A DNA stretch of 24,440 bases from a virus. Lineage: Duplodnaviria; Heunggongvirae; Uroviricota; Caudoviricetes. This document shows, one piece after another, positions 3,510 to 19,082 of the stretch. Numbering within the stretch: the first letter of the stretch is position 1; every line of letters starts with the position of its first letter. The notes under the pieces were generated by a model that saw only the letters and a program-made list of their open reading frames with translations, made no database searches and had not been told where the DNA came from. The position numbers were made by a program, and so were the translations under genes. Where the stretch lies: IMG/VR virus record IMGVR_UViG_2585427750_000026; one strand, 5' to 3'.

Positions 3510-5784
3510 AGCCTCCGGGCGTTTTGTCCCTCCGTCAGCATTTACCGCAGGCACCGGTAAGGCGTTTACCGGTGCTTATGCATGGAACGCGCCACGCGAG
3601 GCTGTCGGGCGCGAAAGACCTCTTACACGTGACGAGATGCGTCAGGTGCAAGGTGTTTTATCCACGATTAACCGCCTGCCTTACTTTTTGCGCTCGCTGT
3701 TTACTTCACGCTATGACTACATCCGGCGCAATAAAAGCCCGGTGCACGGGTTTTATTTCCTCACATCTACTTTTCAGCGTCGTTTATGGCCGCGCATTGA
3801 GCGTGTGAATCAGCGCCATGAAATGAACACCGACGCGTCGTTGCTGTTTCTGGCAGAGCGTGACCACTATGCGCGCCTGCCGGGAATGAATGACAAGGAG
3901 CTGAAAAAGTTTGCCGCCCGTATCTCATCGCAGCTTTTCATGATGTATGAGGAACTCTGCGATGCATGGGTTGATGCGCATGGTGAAAAAGAATCGCTGT
4001 TTACGGATGAGGCGCAGGCTCACCTGTATGGTCATGTTGCTGGCGCTGCACGTGCTTTCAATATTTCCCCGCTCTACTGGAAAAAATACCGTAAAGGACA
4101 GATGACCACGAGGCAGGCATATTCTGCCATTGCCCGCCTGTTTAACGATGAGTGGTGGACTCATCAGCTTAAAGGCCAGCGTATGCGCTGGCATGAGGCG
4201 TTACTGATAGCTGTCGGGGAGGTCAATAAAGACCGTTCTCCTTATGCCAGTAAACACGCCATTCGTGATGTGCGTGCGCGCCGCCAGGCAAATCTGGAAT
4301 TTCTTAAATCGTGTGACCTTGAAAACAGGGAAACCGGCGAGCGCATCGACCTTATCAGTAAGGTGATGGGCAGTATTTCTAATCCTGAAATTCGCCGGAT
4401 GGAGCTGATGAACACCATTGCCGGTATTGAGCGTTACGCCGCCGCAGAGGGTGATGTGGGGATGTTTATCACGCTGACCGCGCCGTCAAAGTATCACCCG
4501 ACACGTCAGGTCGGAAAAGGCGAAAGTAAAACCGTTCAGCTTAATCACGGCTGGAACGATGAGGCATTTAATCCAAAGGATGCGCAGCGTTATCTCTGCC
4601 GTATCTGGAGCCTGATGCGCACGGCATTCAAGGATAATGATTTACAGGTCTACGGTTTGCGAGTCGTCGAGCCACACCACGACGGAACGCCGCACTGGCA
4701 TATGATGCTTTTTTGTCATCCACGCCAGCGTAACCAGATTATCGAAATCATGCGTCGCTATGCGCTCAAAGAGGATGGCGACGAAAGAGGAGCCGCGCGA
4801 AACCGTTTTCAGGCAAAACACCTTAACCGGGGCGGTGCTGCGGGATATATCGCGAAATACATTTCAAAAAACATCGACGGCTATGCACTGGATGGTCAGC
4901 TCGATAACGACACCGGCAGGCCGCTGAAAGACACTGCAGCGGCTGTTACCGCATGGGCGTCAACGTGGCGCATCCCGCAATTTAAAACGGTTGGCCTGCC
5001 GACAATGGGGGCTTACCGTGAACTACGCAAATTGCCTCGCGGCGTCAGCATTGCTGATGAGTTTGACGAGCGCGTCGAGGCTGCACGCGCCGCCGCAGAC
5101 AGTGGTGATTTTGCGCTGTATATCAGCGCGCAGGGCGGGGCAAATGTCCCGCGCGATTGTCAGACTGTCAGGGTCGCCCGTAGTCTGTCGGATGACGTTA
5201 ACGAGTACGAGGAAGAAGTCGAGAGAGTGGTCGGCATTTACGCGCCGCATCTCGGCGCGCGTCATATTCATATCACCAGAACGACGGACTGGCGCATTGT
5301 GCCGAAAGTTCCAGTCGTTGAGCCTTTGACTTTAAAAAGCGGCATCGCCGCGCCTCGGAGTCCTGTCAATAACTGTGGAAAGCTCACTGGTGGTGATACT
5401 TCGTTACCGGCTCCCACGCCTTCTGAGCACGCCGCAGCCGTGCTTAATCTGGTTGATGACGGTGTTATCGAATGGAATGACCCGGAGGTCGTGAGGGCGC
5501 TCAGGGGCGCATTAAAACACGGCCTGCGAACGCCAAACCGTCAGCAAAGAAACGGAAGCCCGTTAAAACCGCATGAAATTGCGCCATCGGCCAGACTGAC
5601 CCGGTCGGAAAGAATGCAAATTACCCGTATCCGCGTTGACCTTGCTCAGAACGGTATCAGGCCGCAGCGATGGGAGCTTGAGGCGCTGGCGCGTGGCGCG
5701 ATCGTAAATTATGACGGGAAAAAATTCACGTATCCGGTCGCTGATGAGTGGCCGGGATTCTCAACAGTAATGGAGTGGACATAA
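3499..5784 (+). CDS. A: Rolling-circle replication initiation endonuclease gpA
   Basis: 761 aa from the ATG at 3499 (MAVKASGRF...), matching the P2 A N-terminus as I recall it. Contains the HxH-type motif (PHWHMMLF) and candidate catalytic tyrosines (GYIAKYISKN). The ORF-track start at 3457 is an upstream in-frame alternative. Confidence 0.9.
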   Translation: MAVKASGRFVPPSAFTAGTGKAFTGAYAWNAPREAVGRERPLTRDEMRQVQGVLSTINRLPYFLRSLFTSRYDYIRRNKSPVHGFYFLTSTFQRRLWPRIERVNQRHEMNTDASLLFLAERDHYARLPGMNDKELKKFAARISSQLFMMYEELCDAWVDAHGEKESLFTDEAQAHLYGHVAGAARAFNISPLYWKKYRKGQMTTRQAYSAIARLFNDEWWTHQLKGQRMRWHEALLIAVGEVNKDRSPYASKHAIRDVRARRQANLEFLKSCDLENRETGERIDLISKVMGSISNPEIRRMELMNTIAGIERYAAAEGDVGMFITLTAPSKYHPTRQVGKGESKTVQLNHGWNDEAFNPKDAQRYLCRIWSLMRTAFKDNDLQVYGLRVVEPHHDGTPHWHMMLFCHPRQRNQIIEIMRRYALKEDGDERGAARNRFQAKHLNRGGAAGYIAKYISKNIDGYALDGQLDNDTGRPLKDTAAAVTAWASTWRIPQFKTVGLPTMGAYRELRKLPRGVSIADEFDERVEAARAAADSGDFALYISAQGGANVPRDCQTVRVARSLSDDVNEYEEEVERVVGIYAPHLGARHIHITRTTDWRIVPKVPVVEPLTLKSGIAAPRSPVNNCGKLTGGDTSLPAPTPSEHAAAVLNLVDDGVIEWNDPEVVRALRGALKHGLRTPNRQQRNGSPLKPHEIAPSARLTRSERMQITRIRVDLAQNGIRPQRWELEALARGAIVNYDGKKFTYPVADEWPGFSTVMEWT

Positions 5785-6236
5785 TGGCAAAAATTCACGA
5801 GGTAAAGCTGCACGCAAAATATTTCGACCTTGTGCTGGAAGGAAAGAAACGCGCAGAGTTTCGGAAAAATGACCGTAATTATGAGCGCGGGGACACGTTG
5901 ATTTTGCATGAATGGGTGCAGGGTGTGTATACGGGGCGAAAGGTTGAAGCCCGGATAACAGATGTTACTGACCTGTCAGACTGGCTGGAAGATTATGTCT
6001 TGCTAAGTATTGAGCTGCTTAATACAGGTGCATATGAGATTGTGAACTGGAAAGAACTTAGTGAGCGTGGTCTGGTATTCAGAATTAATCATGAAATTAT
6101 GCATCAGCTCGGCCTTGCTGTTATGTATGAACCAGAGACGGGGATGTCTGGCGGGGCAATGGTTGCCACGGATGGAGCATGGAACTATTCAGATGAACAG
6201 ATGGAGCGTGCACAGCAAAACGGGTGGCTTGGATAA
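5784..6236 (+). CDS. ASCH/DUF3850-like protein (extended orf91-like)
   Basis: 150 aa from the ATG at 5784 (TAATG overlap with the A stop). N-terminus EVKLHAKYFDLVLEGKKRAEFRKNDRNYERGDTLILHEW resembles the ASCH-like DUF3850 fold by pattern. Lower GC than the replication genes. Confidence 0.5.
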   Translation: MAKIHEVKLHAKYFDLVLEGKKRAEFRKNDRNYERGDTLILHEWVQGVYTGRKVEARITDVTDLSDWLEDYVLLSIELLNTGAYEIVNWKELSERGLVFRINHEIMHQLGLAVMYEPETGMSGGAMVATDGAWNYSDEQMERAQQNGWLG

Positions 6237-6469
6237 TGCACAGAATGCCAGGCGAGATACCGCACCATAAAACTAAAAATATCAAGCTGATGGCTGTTGT
6301 TCACCGTCTACAGCAGATTATGGTCAACGAAAATCTGACGCCCGATGAGCTGGTCGGGTGTGCCGAAATAGTCCGGGATAATTACAGACGGTTTAACGAT
6401 ATCAGTAGACAGAAAAGTGAGACATTTCGGCCAGCTAACATGCCAAAACCACCACCACGCAGGCCGTAG
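6236..6469 (+). CDS. Hypothetical small protein
   Basis: 77-aa ORF, translationally coupled (TAATG) to the preceding gene; proline/basic-rich C-terminus; no recognisable domain. Confidence 0.35.
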   Translation: MHRMPGEIPHHKTKNIKLMAVVHRLQQIMVNENLTPDELVGCAEIVRDNYRRFNDISRQKSETFRPANMPKPPPRRP

Positions 6470-6702
6470 AGAACCCCGCTATCCATGAAACTTGCTTTCA
6501 GGGAGGCGGGTTGAATAAAAGTAGCTTTGCCGAAAAGTCTAACTATCTTGGTTTTTGCTGGTCCAAAGTTAATAAACAAACCTGCTTGTATGCAGCGGGT
6601 TTCCATATTGCCGTTTCGTATGCATGCCGCACCGTGCAAAGAGTATGAAAAATGTTATGGAAAAACGGGGATTAGTGTTATATTAATGGCTGAAAAGTGG
6701 TC

Positions 6703-6767
6703 TTGACACAGGTTGTTGTGTGTGGTAAGGCTGTATCCCTTTGGCATTCAAAATGTAGGAGGCAACC
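6703..6767 (+). promoter_or_regulatory. Putative promoter and strong RBS for the peptidase gene
   Basis: TTGACA at 6703..6708, AT-rich stretch upstream (TTATATTAAT 6678..6687), and Shine-Dalgarno AGGAGG at 6757..6762, 5 nt before ATG 6768. The -10 element is not clear-cut. Confidence 0.35.
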
Positions 6768-7244
6768 ATGAGCATCGCAGCTAAAAATCTGCTTAATCGC
6801 TATTGGGATCGCCGACTACCTGTCGATCCGTTTAAGCTCGCCGCAGCGTGGGGTGCAAGAGTGGAGCCGCTCAGGGAACCAGCGAATGGGTTAAGTGGTT
6901 CAGCCGTAATAGAAAATGGCATACCTTATATTTATTTTAACTCAAATGAACATTACAACCGCCAACGCTTTACTGTAGCGCATGAGCTCGGTCATCATGT
7001 TTTAGGGCATACTCAAGACGGAGAATATCATCGCGATATTGTAGGCAACTACTCAACTGGCATCCGTGATTATCGTGAAATAGAAGCTAACCAGTTTGCT
7101 GCAGAGCTATTGATGCCGGAAGAGGCCATTCGTCAACTAGTGTCGCGTATAGGCGTTGATAGTACATTACGTTTGGCAAACATATTTAACGTTTCTGAGG
7201 CTGCTATGCACTGGCGTCTTAAAGCGTTGGGTATGGCTTACTAA
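6768..7244 (+). CDS. ImmA/IrrE-family (Peptidase_M78 / COG2856-like) zinc metallopeptidase
   Basis: 158 aa with HEXXH (AHELGHHVLGH) followed by the downstream glutamate motif EANQFAAELLMP typical of ImmA/IrrE peptidases. No fused HTH domain. Strong RBS. Confidence 0.75.
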   Translation: MSIAAKNLLNRYWDRRLPVDPFKLAAAWGARVEPLREPANGLSGSAVIENGIPYIYFNSNEHYNRQRFTVAHELGHHVLGHTQDGEYHRDIVGNYSTGIRDYREIEANQFAAELLMPEEAIRQLVSRIGVDSTLRLANIFNVSEAAMHWRLKALGMAY

Positions 7245-7274
7245 TACCCTCTTTAACTTTTTTCAAACCGGTTT

Positions 7275-7311
7275 AAAATCACCATTATTTTATTAATAAT
7301 GGTGATTTTTT
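7275..7311 (+). promoter_or_regulatory. Perfect 15-bp inverted repeat (hairpin) with T-run immediately upstream of the membrane-protein start
   Basis: AAAATCACCATTATT (7275..7289), loop TTATT, AATAATGGTGATTTT (7295..7309), then TT and ATG at 7312. The right arm contains the only SD-like sequence (GGTGA) for the downstream gene. Confidence 0.5.
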
Positions 7312-7932
7312 ATGGCAGATATCGACCTCTCTGGCCAATCTCCGGCTCAGTCTTCCCAGCCATCCAAAACTTCAACCTTTCCACATCCACCTAGCGATGC
7401 CGATCCAGATATTTTGTTACGTAGAGAAGTGCATGATGGCATGGAAAGGAGGGGAATGCGCTTAGTTTTGTCAGCCACCGTACTTTTTTTTGCCATAATG
7501 TTTTTATGGAAAGGTCTGTATTTCGCTCTCGAAGTCGGAAATGGTTTGCTTGCGGCTAAAAGTAGTATTGTTTCAGCGTTGGCACAAAATGATGAAAAGG
7601 TTGTTTGCGAACCTAAAACTAAATGTATTGAGCCTAAACAGCAGACAATGAAACCTACAGAAAAAACTCCCGGCATGTCAACAAAGGGTGATAGAGTAAT
7701 GCCAAACTTATCTACAGATTGGCTTTCTGCAAGTTCGCTAATTGCCATAGTCGCTTTCATCCTTGGTGTTGGCTTGACGTTAATCCTTACCCTACTTAAG
7801 TCCGCTTTTCATCATCCGACTGATAAAAATCTCAATGAGCAAAAAACAACAGATGCGATTGAGTTGGCGACTCCCTTAAGTGAGTTAATCGCGGGTATTA
7901 TTAATTATCTCAAGAGCAAATTTTCTAAATAA
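7312..7932 (+). CDS. Two-transmembrane-helix membrane protein, unknown function (candidate effector)
   Basis: 206 aa with two hydrophobic helices (LVLSATVLFFAIMFLWKGLYFAL and LIAIVAFILGVGLTLILTLL) separated by a hydrophilic loop of about 70 aa containing two Cys. Lower GC than the phage core. Confidence 0.6.
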   Translation: MADIDLSGQSPAQSSQPSKTSTFPHPPSDADPDILLRREVHDGMERRGMRLVLSATVLFFAIMFLWKGLYFALEVGNGLLAAKSSIVSALAQNDEKVVCEPKTKCIEPKQQTMKPTEKTPGMSTKGDRVMPNLSTDWLSASSLIAIVAFILGVGLTLILTLLKSAFHHPTDKNLNEQKTTDAIELATPLSELIAGIINYLKSKFSK

Positions 7933-8141
7933 CGTCCTCTTGGTTATTTTTTAAATCAGCACCATTAGTGCCGGTTTTTTTATGCTGTTTTACTGTAATT
8001 TCCCTGTTTTTAAGCCGTGCATGCAGCAGGTGCATGGTTTTGCATGCGCAGGAAGTGTCCGTTCTGGCCGAGCACCGGCAGAACGGACGCGGATCCAGAA
8101 CGGTCATGCAACTGCATTCAAACCACCCCATGAAGCGGGCG

Positions 8142-8160
8142 GGCGAGGCGGGGAAAGCAC
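8142..8160 (+). other. cos: cos cohesive-end site (19 nt)
   Basis: GGCGAGGCGGGGAAAGCAC matches the 19-nt P2 cohesive end as I recall it, and sits at the expected position between the accessory region and gene Q. Confidence 0.7.
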
Positions 8161-8302
8161 TGCGCGCTGGCGGGGGTGCTGATTTTATTTTTTCAGCGTC
8201 TGAGCGCGTCGTGATGGCGTTTAGATTGTGCGCCGGGGCGTTGGTGTGTCTGCGGGCTGTTTTGTGCGGTGGTGAGCGTGTGAGGGCGTGATGACGGGGG
8301 GT

Positions 8303-9364: not shown

Positions 9365-11136
9365 CAGTAAAACTCCAGAATGGTGGATGTCAGCGGGGTG
9401 CTGATACCGGCGGTGAGTGGCTCATTTAACAGGGCGTGCATGGTCGCCCAGGCGAGGTCGGCGTGGCTGGCTTCCTCGCTGCGGCTGGCCTCATAGGTGG
9501 CGCTGCGTCCGCTGCTGGTCATGGTCTTGCGGATAGCCATAAACGAGCTGGTGATGTCGGTGGCGCTGACGTCATATTCCAGACAGCCACGGCGGATAAC
9601 GTCTTTTGCCTTGAGCACCATTGCGGTTTTCATTTCCGGCGTGTAGCGGATGTCGCGCGCGGCGGGATAGAACGAGCGCACGAGCTGGAACACGCCGACA
9701 CCGAGGCCGGTGGCATCAATACCGATGTATTCAACGTTATATTTTTCGGTGAGTTTGCGGATGGATTCCGCCTGAGTGGCAAAGTCCATGCCTTTCCACT
9801 GGTGACGCTCAAGTATTCTGAATTTGCCACCGGCCACCACCGGCGGTGCCAGCACCACGCATCCGGCGCTGTCGCCACGGTGTGACGGGTCGTAACCAAT
9901 CCATACCGGGCGGGAGCCGAACGGATTGGCGGCAAACGGCGCATAGTCTTCCCATTCTTCCAGCGTGTCGACCATGCAGCGTTGCAGCTCCTCGAACGGG
10001 AACACCGACGCCTTGTCGTCAACAAATTCACACATGAACAGGTTTTTAAAATCGTCGGCGCTGTTTTCACGTTTGAGCTGCTCAATGTCGAACAGCGTGC
10101 AGCCACCTTTCAGGGCGTCCTCAATGGTGACAATCTGCCGCCACTGGCCGTCCGCACAGAGAAGCCCACCGGCAAGGGCGTTATGACTGACGTCGATTTC
10201 CACGCGTTCGGCGGCGCTGGCGCGTCCCCGGTTGAACAGTTCACCTGACCAGAACGGGTAGGCGTCGTGCGCCAGCGTGGACGGGGTGGAGAAATAGGTC
10301 GAACGCAGGTGACTCTGTGAGGCCATACCTGATGCCACCTTACGCAGTACCTGAAAATTCGGGATCCAGAAAATCTCGTCGACGTACAGGTCGCCGTTAT
10401 GGCTCTGTGCGGTGTTGGAGTTGGTGCCGAGAAAAATTAGTTTTGCGCCGTTATTGCCCAGGACAATCGGGTCACCGGTCAGGTCAACGTCAACCAGACG
10501 GGCAAAGGCGATGATGTATTCGCGGAACACATACGCCTGCGTTTTACTGGCCGACAGAAAAATCTGGTTATGGCCGGTTTTCAGGGCGCGCAGCAGCGCC
10601 TCGCGGGAAAAATAAAACGTTGCGCCAATCTGGCGGGATTTCAGTATATCGCGGATGCGGTGCTCAAGCCCGGCGCGATACCAGTGCAACTGATAGTCGA
10701 AAGACTGCTCAAAGAAAATCTGCTCCAGCTTTTCGATGGCTTCGTCACTGAAAAAATTCTTTTTCGGTTTGCGACGCCCGCCTTTGTTGCGGTTAGCGAC
10801 GTTCGGATTAAGGTCTGCCTCGTTGCCGGTCTGACTGTAGCGGTTGACCCGCGCCAGTCGTTCAATCTGGCGTCCCAGCAGGTCAATTTCCTTGAAGTCA
10901 CCGCCGGTTTTCTGCGGTTTGATGATGAGCTGGGTCAGCCGCGCTTCCAGGCTCATTTCGACACGGCTGATGGGGGCAACGCTGTCCCAGCCGTCGCGCT
11001 GTTTCCAGCTCTGCACCGTCGGGCGTTTCATCTGCAACATGGCGGCAATCTGCGGCACGGAAACCCCCTGCCAGTACAGCAGCGCCGCCTGCCGACGCGG
11101 GTCGTGTAAAAGAGTGGTGTCTGTGGTGATGGTCAT
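9364..11136 (-). CDS. P: Terminase large (ATPase) subunit gpP
   Basis: 590 aa from the ATG at 11136 (MTITTDTTLL...), matching P2 P length. The ORF track's longer ORF to 11166 begins at an upstream alternative start. Confidence 0.9.
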   Translation of the reverse strand: MTITTDTTLLHDPRRQAALLYWQGVSVPQIAAMLQMKRPTVQSWKQRDGWDSVAPISRVEMSLEARLTQLIIKPQKTGGDFKEIDLLGRQIERLARVNRYSQTGNEADLNPNVANRNKGGRRKPKKNFFSDEAIEKLEQIFFEQSFDYQLHWYRAGLEHRIRDILKSRQIGATFYFSREALLRALKTGHNQIFLSASKTQAYVFREYIIAFARLVDVDLTGDPIVLGNNGAKLIFLGTNSNTAQSHNGDLYVDEIFWIPNFQVLRKVASGMASQSHLRSTYFSTPSTLAHDAYPFWSGELFNRGRASAAERVEIDVSHNALAGGLLCADGQWRQIVTIEDALKGGCTLFDIEQLKRENSADDFKNLFMCEFVDDKASVFPFEELQRCMVDTLEEWEDYAPFAANPFGSRPVWIGYDPSHRGDSAGCVVLAPPVVAGGKFRILERHQWKGMDFATQAESIRKLTEKYNVEYIGIDATGLGVGVFQLVRSFYPAARDIRYTPEMKTAMVLKAKDVIRRGCLEYDVSATDITSSFMAIRKTMTSSGRSATYEASRSEEASHADLAWATMHALLNEPLTAGISTPLTSTILEFY

Positions 11137-17061: not shown

Positions 17062-17506
17062 GTTTAAGCGTTTTGAAGACCGGCTGACCGGACTGATTGA
17101 GTCGCTGTCACCGTCAGGGCGTCGGCGACTGAGTGCCGAACTGGCGAAACGTCTGCGGCAGAGTCAGCAGCGTCGGGTGATGGCGCAGAAAGCCCCGGAC
17201 GGCACACCCTACGCGCCACGTCAGCAGCAGAGCGTCAGAAAAAAGACCGGTCGTGTTAAGCGAAAAATGTTTGCGAAACTTATCACCAGTCGTTTTTTGC
17301 ATATCCGCGCCAGCCCGGAGCAGGCATCAATGGAATTTTACGGCGGGAAGTCGCCGAAAATCGCCAGTGTGCATCAGTTCGGTCTGTCGGAAGAAACCCG
17401 GAAAGACGGTAAGAAAATTGATTATCCGGCGCGTCCTCTGCTCGGCTTTACCGGTGAGGATGTGCAGATGATTGAGGAGATTATCCTGGCTCACCTTGAG
17501 CGTTAG
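17054..17506 (+). CDS. S: Tail completion protein gpS
   Basis: 150 aa, P2 S length and position; overlaps the R stop. Confidence 0.8.
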   Translation: MNEFKRFEDRLTGLIESLSPSGRRRLSAELAKRLRQSQQRRVMAQKAPDGTPYAPRQQQSVRKKTGRVKRKMFAKLITSRFLHIRASPEQASMEFYGGKSPKIASVHQFGLSEETRKDGKKIDYPARPLLGFTGEDVQMIEEIILAHLER

Positions 17507-17536
17507 TTTTATCCAGGCAGAGGCTGATGCGCAATT

Positions 17537-17571
17537 AAACATTGAGCGGCCATGCTGGTCGCTCAATGTTT
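17537..17571. terminator. Bidirectional stem-loop between convergent S and the AT-rich gene
   Basis: Perfect 12-bp inverted repeat AAACATTGAGCG ... CGCTCAATGTTT with an 11-nt loop, between the S stop (17506) and the minus-strand gene stop (17578). Confidence 0.5.
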
Positions 17572-17577
17572 AGAGGT

Positions 17578-18363
17578 TTATGAGTGATTTTTATTTGATG
17601 CTTTGTATTCTAAAACCTTCTTATTGGCGTAAAAGAATTTTGTATATGACAGGAATATAACCAGACCTGAAGTGAAATAGACGAGGGATAGTATTAATAA
17701 TGCTTTTTTGTGACTGTTATTATCTTTAATCTCCTGGCTTAACCATTCGGAGTCCTCCTCGTTTAGCTGTAAGAGCTTATTGCAGGCGATTTCAGGAAGT
17801 GTGTCTTTTATAAATACGTTTTGCAGTCTCTTGCAATCGGCAAGGCTATAAGTTTTATTAAATTCAACTGCTTTATTTTTGAAGGATAAAAGAACTTTGT
17901 CACTATAAACATAGTACATCATATTTTTATATGGTATGCCTATGGCATCTCTTACTATAGCGGATTGTTTGTTGTGTATATAACATGCGAAGAGAATATA
18001 AATAATACTGGCCAGAATTACAATTATTGTTTTAATTATGTGTGGTGGTTTTGTTATGTCACCCCAGATGCGAGTAAGGAAAAAATACGATGTTTTTAGT
18101 TTTCCATCAATCAGTCCCTGCTGTATCATTCTCACATTTTCAATGCCTGATACATTGATTCCGTTAATTATTTTAAATAGTTGAATGTCGCGCCACTCGC
18201 GGTCAAGTCTTTTTAATTTTTTGTCTGAATATCCAAAATTGAAATAATGTGCAATAAGCCTCATAAGGTTACTTTTACCAAAGCTAAAAAATGCTAATAC
18301 TGCAAAGCTACAAAGGAAAAAAACGATTAGCCCCCACACATTAGTCACATTATAGCTGACCAT
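17578..18363 (-). CDS. AT-rich membrane protein of unknown function (P2 orf30-like accessory gene)
   Basis: 261 aa on the strand opposite the late operons, with a strong SD (AAGGAG). Markedly AT-rich with Lys/Asn/Ile/Phe-rich composition. Three hydrophobic helices (N-terminal, central IIKTIIVILASIIYILFACYI, C-terminal LILSLVYFTSGLVIFLSY). Confidence 0.6.
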   Translation of the reverse strand: MVSYNVTNVWGLIVFFLCSFAVLAFFSFGKSNLMRLIAHYFNFGYSDKKLKRLDREWRDIQLFKIINGINVSGIENVRMIQQGLIDGKLKTSYFFLTRIWGDITKPPHIIKTIIVILASIIYILFACYIHNKQSAIVRDAIGIPYKNMMYYVYSDKVLLSFKNKAVEFNKTYSLADCKRLQNVFIKDTLPEIACNKLLQLNEEDSEWLSQEIKDNNSHKKALLILSLVYFTSGLVIFLSYTKFFYANKKVLEYKASNKNHS

Positions 18364-18446
18364 TACGCTCTCCTTGAATGTTGTCTGGTAGTTCTACAAA
18401 TGAATCCAGATAGCATAACTTTTATATATTGTGCAATCTCACATGC

Positions 18447-19082
18447 ATGAACACTCTCGCAAATATTCAGGAACTCGCGCGCGCACTGCGCAACATGATT
18501 CGCACCGGCATTATCGTCGAAACCGACCTTAACGCCGGTCGCTGCCGCGTGCAGACCGGCGGCATGTGCACCGACTGGCTTCAGTGGCTGACCCATCGTG
18601 CCGGGCGTTCGCGCACATGGTGGGCACCTTCCGTGGGGGAACAGGTGCTGATTCTGGCCGTGGGCGGTGAACTCGACACGGCGTTCGTTCTGCCGGGGAT
18701 TTATTCCGGCGATAACCCTGCGCCGTCTGCGTCGGCTGATGCCCTGCATATCCGTTTCCCTGACGGGGCGGTGATTGAGTATGAACCCGAAACCAGTGCA
18801 CTCACGGTAAGCGGAATTAAAACGGCCAGCGTGACGGCTTCTGATTCTGTTACTGCCACGGTACCGGTGGTCACGGTGAAAGCGTCAACCCGTGTCACCC
18901 TGGACACACCAGAAGTGGTCTGCACTAACAAACTGACTACCGGCACGCTGGAAGTGCAGAAGGGCGGGACGATGCGCGGCAACATTGAACACACCGGCGG
19001 TGAACTCTCATCAAACGGTAAGGTACTGCATACCCATAAACACCCCGGCGACAGCGGCGGCACAACCGGGAGTCCTTTATGA
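18447..19082 (+). CDS. V: Baseplate spike/assembly protein gpV
   Basis: 211 aa from ATG 18447 (MNTLANIQELARALRN...), P2 V length and position. Confidence 0.85.
   Translation: MNTLANIQELARALRNMIRTGIIVETDLNAGRCRVQTGGMCTDWLQWLTHRAGRSRTWWAPSVGEQVLILAVGGELDTAFVLPGIYSGDNPAPSASADALHIRFPDGAVIEYEPETSALTVSGIKTASVTASDSVTATVPVVTVKASTRVTLDTPEVVCTNKLTTGTLEVQKGGTMRGNIEHTGGELSSNGKVLHTHKHPGDSGGTTGSPL

Follow-up and report, generated by a model that had tools for sequence, protein, structure and literature searches.

We analysed a 24,440-nucleotide stretch of DNA from a tailed phage (Caudoviricetes; IMG/VR virus record IMGVR_UViG_2585427750_000026), hereafter called the window, and focused on orf30, a gene that lies antisense in the tail gene cluster between the tail-completion gene S and the spike gene V. 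We found that this gene is an allele of orf30 of phage P2, that it is a genuine accessory gene under selection, and that its family has a long history in P2-like phages and evolves at a much higher rate than the neighbouring virion genes. The reading that we tentatively favour is that Orf30 is a prophage-expressed, envelope-level phage-exclusion protein, which would be analogous to, and not homologous with, SieA of phage P22. The gene has been described and annotated before, and our additions are incremental: a link to the family DUF6216, recurrence next to V across genera, maintained AT-richness, a predicted topology with a conserved cysteine pair, tandem paralogues, and a putatively domesticated copy in Enterobacter cloacae.

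Over positions 17400-18500 the window aligns to phage P2 (AF063097) without gaps and with the same gene order at 98.8% DNA identity, and its Orf30 is 98.1% identical to the P2 protein (tblastn). P2 orf30 (AAD03281.1) likewise encodes 261 residues in the antisense S-V position, has the same hairpin and PV control region, and differs from the window allele by a few substitutions only. PHROG 2407, a family listed as having unknown function, matches Orf30 over residues 1-261 (E=1.1e-148). Full-length similarity and the opposite-strand position between S and V both place the gene in the P2 Orf30 / PHROG 2407 family. The original prediction, made by a model that saw only the letters and a list of open reading frames, had already recognised the position of P2 orf30 and called the gene nonessential, which agrees with the P2 GenBank annotation ('orf30, nonessential'). 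The bulk of the window is ~97% identical to P2-group phages, and its layout runs from the integrase end. The cargo between gene A and the portal gene is unlike the tin/old of P2, and the window phage is therefore a P2 relative and not P2 itself. Published work places orf30, as a 786-base-pair open reading frame of unknown function, between S and V, and reports that phages W-phi and L-413C lack it and that other P2-like phages hold different genes there (PMC2771037, PMC3091744, PMC6823313, PMC13366799).

The gene and the elements around it are as follows.

17578..18363, minus strand: orf30 coding sequence, 261 codons plus a stop codon at 17578-17580; allele of phage P2 orf30.
18370..18375, minus strand: Shine-Dalgarno sequence AAGGAG, 6 nucleotides 5′ of the orf30 ATG, read from the sequence.
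17507..18446, no strand: AT-rich cassette between the S stop codon and the V ATG, defined by the composition profile and by alignment with the empty-site phage S164.
17536..17572, no strand: hairpin with a 17-base-pair stem and a 3-nucleotide loop (inverted repeat I4), a candidate terminator common to S and orf30.
18378..18405, plus strand: Ogr activator-binding site of the late promoter PV, P2 feature 10239-10266 transferred with the offset of +8139 from the ungapped alignment.

The open reading frame starts with ATG and encodes 261 residues (program-made list of open reading frames). The stop-free run in the AT-rich island is 271 codons long compared with 70 +/- 16 (maximum 174) in 2000 shuffles, a length far beyond chance. 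As originally predicted, the gene is AT-rich and antisense to the R-S and V-W-J late genes: its GC (guanine plus cytosine) content is 33.2%, that of the S-V island (17507-18428) is 34.4%, and that of the remaining window is 53.0%. A GC profile, which had been proposed as a check, confirmed that the AT-rich island is sharply bounded. The protein is, as claimed, rich in lysine (10.0%), asparagine (7.3%) and isoleucine (10.7%), next to leucine (11.1%), serine (7.7%) and phenylalanine (7.3%). The strong Shine-Dalgarno sequence assigned to the gene is the AAGGAG six nucleotides before the ATG, and the same motif precedes Serratia orf30 homologues.

In composition and distribution orf30 has the marks of a moron or prophage accessory cassette. 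Its base composition is atypical for its surroundings (33% versus 53% GC), and the cassette has sharp edges at the S stop and the V start, where similarity to the empty-site phage S164 ends a few bases past the S stop codon and resumes at the V start codon. It is also present in some phages and absent from others. Among 76 phage records that match its flanks, orf30 is found in 20; most of the remaining records, including all 41 empty-site records listed, have a 66-base-pair S-V spacer. The cassette is self-contained, with an antisense gene, its own ribosome-binding site and a hairpin common with S, and it substitutes for the short S-V spacer. In 5426 complete Escherichia coli genomes we observed orf30 at 482 places in 464 genomes, all of them chromosomal, and in 461 of the 464 carrying genomes at least 80% of its length is matched. 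Gene S occurs at 1803 places in 1576 of these genomes, so that about a quarter of P2-type S-V junctions are occupied. The orf30 copies in E. coli are mostly 90-95% identical in DNA, and the S copies are nearly all 95-99% identical.

Nine orf30 alleles were compared: those of the window and P2, of five further phages and of two prophages in E. coli. Each is 786 nucleotides long and free of internal stops. Among well-diverged alleles the pairwise ratio of nonsynonymous to synonymous substitution rates (dN/dS) is ~0.45-0.5 for orf30 and 0.03-0.2 for R, S, V and W, and the dN of orf30 is 5-10 times that of these neighbours. Change is distributed unevenly along the protein. The ratio of nonsynonymous to synonymous polymorphism (pN/pS) is 1.19 for residues 1-28 (the N-terminus and helix 1), while helices 2 and 3 have values of 0.70 and 0.86, and it is only 0.39 for loop 1, 0.30 for loop 2 and 0.34 for the C-terminal tail. 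The extramembrane domains of Orf30 are thus under purifying selection, and its membrane helices change fast.

The same contrast with the surrounding genes extends to distant relatives. The V, J and I proteins of Serratia prophages share 63-75% identity with their window counterparts, and the Orf30 homologues of the same prophages were undetected by tblastn with the window protein at E<=1e-3. A word-indexed search returned five clusters only. An exhaustive profile search returned 44 representatives, about 25 of them full length (250-270 residues), which are 15-39% identical to Orf30. All 25 full-length relatives match PHROG 2407. The family is restricted to Enterobacterales: its named representatives belong to Escherichia, Enterobacter, Serratia, Pectobacterium, Yersinia, Sodalis and one unclassified member of the Enterobacteriaceae, and they are all labelled hypothetical. 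The GC content is 33-38% in all nine homologues that we checked, in surroundings of 48-59%. The original prediction had called orf30 horizontally acquired; in the sense of a recent import from an AT-rich donor, which we set aside on the composition of the nine homologues and their hosts, this is too simple. Since homologues of 15-39% identity adjoin V in several genera and those checked are all AT-rich, orf30 belongs to an old, resident cargo family with maintained AT-richness.

The relatives also provide a link to a Pfam family. DUF6216 (PF19723) is matched over nearly full length by 10 of the 25 relatives; a Sodalis member in the S-V slot, matched over its full length, is the only one above the gathering threshold (28.9 bits against 27.3). 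A profile built from the Orf30 subgroup retrieves this Sodalis DUF6216 relative at E=5.8e-14. The window protein itself has no DUF6216 match at E<=1, and the link is therefore transitive only. Orf30 is probably a divergent branch of DUF6216, whose members share its length of ~250-270 residues and whose name, that of a family of unknown function, gives no functional information.

The three membrane helices that had been proposed for Orf30 are found again in the hydropathy profile, with peaks near residues 9-28, 108-130 and 220-240, and they coincide with helices of the AlphaFold model. This model, built with the 25-sequence alignment, is confident (mean predicted local distance difference test score, pLDDT, 88; predicted template modelling score, pTM, 0.77). 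Its long helices span 5-39, 108-133 and 201-259; loop 1 is helical, and loop 2 combines four strands (140-172) with two helices. Along the gene the predicted domains are arranged as follows.

18280..18339, minus strand: transmembrane helix 1, codons 9-28, from hydropathy and AlphaFold helix 5-39; the most variable segment in close alleles.
18043..18279, minus strand: loop 1, codons 29-107, a helical domain of ~79 residues predicted to be cytoplasmic, from the 25-homologue alignment.
17974..18042, minus strand: transmembrane helix 2, codons 108-130, from hydropathy and AlphaFold helix 108-133.
17707..17973, minus strand: loop 2, codons 131-219, a strand-plus-helix domain predicted to be periplasmic, from charge, cysteines and the model.
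17581..17706, minus strand: transmembrane helix 3 (220-240), followed by a basic tail with a predicted cytoplasmic location, codons 220-261, from hydropathy and AlphaFold helix 201-259.

Orf30 is thus predicted with good support to be an integral, three-helix protein of the inner membrane. In the 25 homologues loop 1 is net positive and 78-79 residues long; with a column entropy below that of every other domain it is the best-conserved region, and its motif is D.QLFR..NGINV...DA. Loop 2 has a charge near neutral or negative and exactly two cysteines in all 25 (alignment positions C176 and C193, which are residues 177 and 194 of the full protein). The C-terminal tail of the window protein has a charge of +5/-1. 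The positive-inside rule, applied to these loop charges, would place the N-terminus outside, loop 1 inside, loop 2 outside and the C-terminus inside. The cysteine pair of loop 2 likely forms a periplasmic disulfide.

In the window a weak extended -10-like element, TGCTATCTG, lies upstream of orf30 at 18415-18407 on the minus strand. The Serratia homologues have a near-consensus extended -10, TGCTACAAT or TGCTAATAT, 23-27 nucleotides before the ATG. Because the gene is antisense to the late operons and because of these Serratia elements, expression outside the late programme is plausible. The Ogr site of PV lies inside the orf30 5′ leader, and the orf30 promoter must therefore overlap the PV region. 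At the other end of the gene, the hairpin separates the stop codons of the convergent genes S (17506) and orf30 (17578) and is labelled as the putative O-operon terminator in the P2 record. Its folding energy is -32.5 kcal/mol in plus-strand RNA (z -6.0) and -22.4 kcal/mol in minus-strand RNA (z -5.5). A terminator scan of the window did not call it, and its T-tracts are weak in both directions, for which reasons a bidirectional terminator is plausible and not established. Of the earlier claim that such a stem-loop terminator flanks the gene, the strong hairpin stands; it is a single element on the 3′ side only.

As a separate observation, the region upstream of V (PV, 18364-18446) is AT-rich in the window and in P2 when compared with loci L002, L003 and L018. 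A conserved block upstream of V, TTGTTGTG ... GGCATCCTyCC ... ATG, is found in the empty-site phage S164 and in Serratia and Yersinia prophages, and the window and P2 differ from it. The V promoter region of the window and P2 seems to have arrived together with the orf30 cassette of the P2 type.

We collected the genomic contexts of the relatives protein by protein. Members that are only ~20% identical adjoin V, in antisense, in P2-like prophages of Serratia (L003, L004, L007), Yersinia (L018-L020) and Sodalis (L023) and at loci L027 and L029, and the S-V gap is usually filled entirely by the family member. At L006, L021/L022 and L030 the members adjoin V with no intact S adjacent. A truncated P2-like prophage (L030, 4001-5658) has two tandem family genes that adjoin V, are 26% identical to each other and both have ~30-33% GC. 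In Pectobacterium the family gene adjoins V and is separated from S by three further open reading frames, one of which encodes an ORF6N domain. We note that this slot (L021, 5800-7440) holds the ORF6N protein, which has a weak match to PADLOC PDC-S05 (E ~1e-6), together with small open reading frames of 122 and 94 residues.

Several family genes are intact although no functional phage is left around them. In a Serratia rubidaea remnant the family gene is intact and S is only a fragment. At the metagenome locus L008 an intact family gene has fragments of integrase and gpA as neighbours and lies at the border of a decayed P2-like element. In place of an Orf30 relative, the S-V slot of this element contains (743-2068) an antisense 441-residue P-loop protein that matches the PADLOC candidate PDC-S59 (E=1.7e-196). 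In E. cloacae (region 5769-6765 of L017) a lone chromosomal family gene lies 150 nucleotides downstream of the CyaR small RNA gene, flanked by U32 peptidase (trhP-like) and yegS-like genes in 24 of 24 contigs read; in these 24 contigs no other P2 gene is detectable beside it. In E. coli K-12 the equivalent interval contains the cryptic P2-like prophage PR-X with ogrK and yegZ. K-12 YegR, which is encoded at the CyaR-yegS locus, was considered as a possible family member and proved unrelated, though its gene is AT-rich (36% GC). An orf30-type gene can therefore persist without a partner gene and without a functional phage.

Where orf30 is replaced, the slot carries other cargo. Phage R18C (L024, 681-1421) has in its place a sense-strand open reading frame with 36% GC, whose soluble product shows an HNH-type motif by eye (CxxC ... 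EH..P ... CxxCN). We tried this protein as a hidden family member and rejected it, given its noise-level score against the family profile, its solubility and the HNH-like motif. Burkholderia phage AB4 has a DNA methylase in the slot (PMC13366799).

Under the envelope-exclusion reading, Orf30 would be produced in the lysogen, independently of the late operons, and would by itself, from the inner membrane, shield the cell against infecting phages. Most likely it would interfere with the passage of a foreign genome through the periplasm and the inner membrane. Its periplasmic domain and variable helices would meet the ejection or tail-tip machinery of the invader, or a host membrane protein that the invader needs, and an arms race over specificity would account for how quickly the family diverges. 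The lone E. cloacae gene and the intact copies in the S. rubidaea remnant and at L008 argue for lone action and host benefit, and we infer a host-beneficial, stand-alone activity at the inner membrane. Homologue divergence beyond the reach of tblastn, a dN 5-10 times that of the neighbours and the tandem 26% identical paralogues of L030 have the signature of an arms race, suggesting that the biological opponent of Orf30 keeps changing. Elsewhere the S-V slot holds cargo of a defence type, to judge from the PDC-S59 match in L008, the HNH-like open reading frame of R18C and the AB4 methylase. Anti-phage protection at the entry step would be the best-supported kind of activity. The original prediction had made orf30 a candidate superinfection-exclusion or defence gene, and the evidence from the family (fast evolution, tandem paralogues, retention in decayed prophages and slot cargo) appears to strengthen the defence idea somewhat.

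Two extensions of envelope exclusion can be considered. With a little less assurance still, Orf30/DUF6216 could be an unrecognised family of single-protein inner-membrane anti-phage factors that lies mainly in the S-V slot of P2-like prophages, is spread across Enterobacterales, diversifies rapidly and has undergone at least one domestication by a host, in E. cloacae. Neither its sequence nor its fold would be related to those of Imm, SieA and the other known families. A bolder variant, suggested by the near-constant linkage to the spike gene V, is that the periplasmic domain may counter membrane penetration by contractile tails, either those of other P2-like phages or tailocins.

The closest comparison is with P22 SieA. 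The sieA gene and a late gene for an ejection protein lie on opposite strands and converge; similarly, orf30 is antisense among late genes. It has 34% GC in surroundings of 43% and is thus, like orf30, AT-rich relative to its phage. SieA has three predicted helices and resides in the inner membrane, as Orf30 does by prediction. SieA sequence types are less than 30% identical, and their most conserved motif is cytoplasmic (PMC10883804). The two proteins differ in that SieA of P22 has 164 residues and a short predicted loop between helices 2 and 3, whereas Orf30 has 261 residues and a periplasmic domain of ~85 residues with a cysteine pair. For P22 SieA a block of DNA injection is demonstrated. 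Orf30, which is not a SieA homologue, may work in a comparable way.

Other exclusion genes resemble orf30 in part. The old, tin and fun(Z) genes and the cargo hotspots of P2 are AT-rich accessory genes at fixed slots that vary among P2-like phages, like orf30. Old, Tin and Fun have demonstrated anti-phage phenotypes and, unlike Orf30, are soluble proteins. HK97 gp15 (cited in PMC10884400) and T4 Imm are single-gene phage inner-membrane proteins that stop genome entry, gp15 being encoded by a 'moron' among tail genes; both are much smaller than Orf30 and have no sizeable periplasmic domain. Orf30 has no detectable similarity to Imm, since no Pfam model matched it. The Pfam families of T4 Imm and of lambda/P22 SieB did not match Orf30, nor are they among the 25 families that the 25 relatives hit most frequently. 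The hotspot genes of P2 are believed to spread by horizontal exchange; the studies of P2 defence hotspots do not list the S-V slot, and orf30 goes unmentioned in the texts searched (PMC3091744, PMC9122126, PMC9519451, PMC13586616).

A number of observations weigh against envelope exclusion. P2 lysogens have three known exclusion phenotypes, which have been assigned to old, tin and fun, and they allow plaque formation by P2 vir mutants. Orf30 is therefore not obviously excluding P2, and any target is probably a heterologous phage. We know of no leftover exclusion phenotype of P2 lysogens. Searches for recognisable relatives were negative: Orf30 matched no family of any kind in Pfam at E<=1, nothing in NCBIfam, no functionally named family in PHROG (its sole match is 2407) and none of the known or candidate defence models of PADLOC-DB 2.0, where the 25 relatives gave three isolated noise-level matches only. 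Homology with SieA was rejected, as hhalign of the 25-sequence profile against P22 SieA returned a probability of 0.3% with 11 columns aligned. A structure search of the PDB and of viral models found no relative of the Orf30 model, so that the mechanism of exclusion rests on analogy, and a PDB sequence search with the family profile returned nothing meaningful. As for expression, a consensus sigma-70 promoter was sought upstream of orf30 in the window and none was found, and regulation of orf30 may be entangled with late transcription, since its leader overlaps the Ogr site of PV. Low constraint alone could explain the fast evolution of the helices. Finally, the cited papers assign orf30 only an 'unknown function' (PMC2771037, PMC3091744, PMC6823313).

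Other kinds of activity can be read from the same data. One is that of an abortive-infection or toxic effector, kept silent (for example by H-NS) until infection is sensed, which would then oligomerise and depolarise the inner membrane in the manner of lambda RexB or holin-like effectors, and would kill the cell before the infection runs to completion. Orf30 is small, spans the membrane several times and has no enzymatic domain, which would suit this role, and a strongly AT-rich island with a weak promoter fits a silenced gene. However, no sensor partner gene is conserved beside the orf30 relatives, the lone E. cloacae copy also has none, and the two large conserved extramembrane domains exceed the needs of a simple pore-former. 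We regard an abortive effector as unlikely.

We also doubt that Orf30 serves a form of lysogenic conversion unconnected with phages, such as a change in envelope physiology (stress tolerance, lipopolysaccharide or outer-membrane assembly) or immunity to a colicin, a tailocin or a contact-dependent toxin. Retention in E. cloacae and in decayed prophages shows a host benefit of an unspecified kind, and three-helix inner-membrane proteins include the immunity proteins of pore-forming colicins. One family member has a very weak match to colicin-K immunity (E=0.11), but this is at noise level. Moreover, the family is nearly always found in P2-like cargo slots that elsewhere carry defence-type genes, and rapid divergence with tandem divergent paralogues better fits a changing opponent than a housekeeping role.

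A contribution to the lytic cycle seems quite improbable. On this account Orf30 would be transcribed late from the divergent V promoter region and would adjust lysis timing, block re-adsorption or injection, or help tail or baseplate formation. The gene does nearly always adjoin V, has its control region in common with the Ogr-dependent PV, and encodes a membrane protein near the lysis genes. Yet it is nonessential in the P2 annotation, about three quarters of close phages lack it, viable ones included, and it is antisense to all late operons. Intact copies also remain where no functional phage does. In addition, Orf30 is unmatched by the holin, antiholin and spanin models of Pfam and PHROG, and its gene lies on the strand opposite to the lysis cassette. 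A selfish or decaying open reading frame that hitch-hikes in a recombination-prone slot and has no current function is very improbable: no function is known after ~30 years and its dN/dS is above that of its neighbours, but the conservation data largely refute decay, with the frame intact in nine of nine alleles, loops under purifying selection (pN/pS 0.30-0.39), architecture, loop length, motifs and cysteine pair kept in 25 homologues down to 15% identity, and a confident AlphaFold model (pLDDT 88, pTM 0.77).

The window has further accessory cargo away from orf30. Its slot between the replication gene A and the portal gene Q (5748-8291), which holds tin/old in P2, is filled by different genes.

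5748-6236: ASCH/DUF3850 protein.
6768-7244: M78 peptidase, with a match to PADLOC capP (E=3.8e-31).
7312-7932 and 7968-8291: two open reading frames without a family match.

This A-Q slot cargo resembles a defence cassette composed of a regulator and an effector.

Few P2 reading frames are still without an assigned function; orf30 is one of them, and it is present in 464 of 5426 complete E. coli genomes. If envelope exclusion is correct, orf30 would be the fourth protective gene of P2, and the S-V gap would be a further place to seek defence genes, beside the two well-studied hotspots. It would also introduce a new membrane-protein fold in phage entry.

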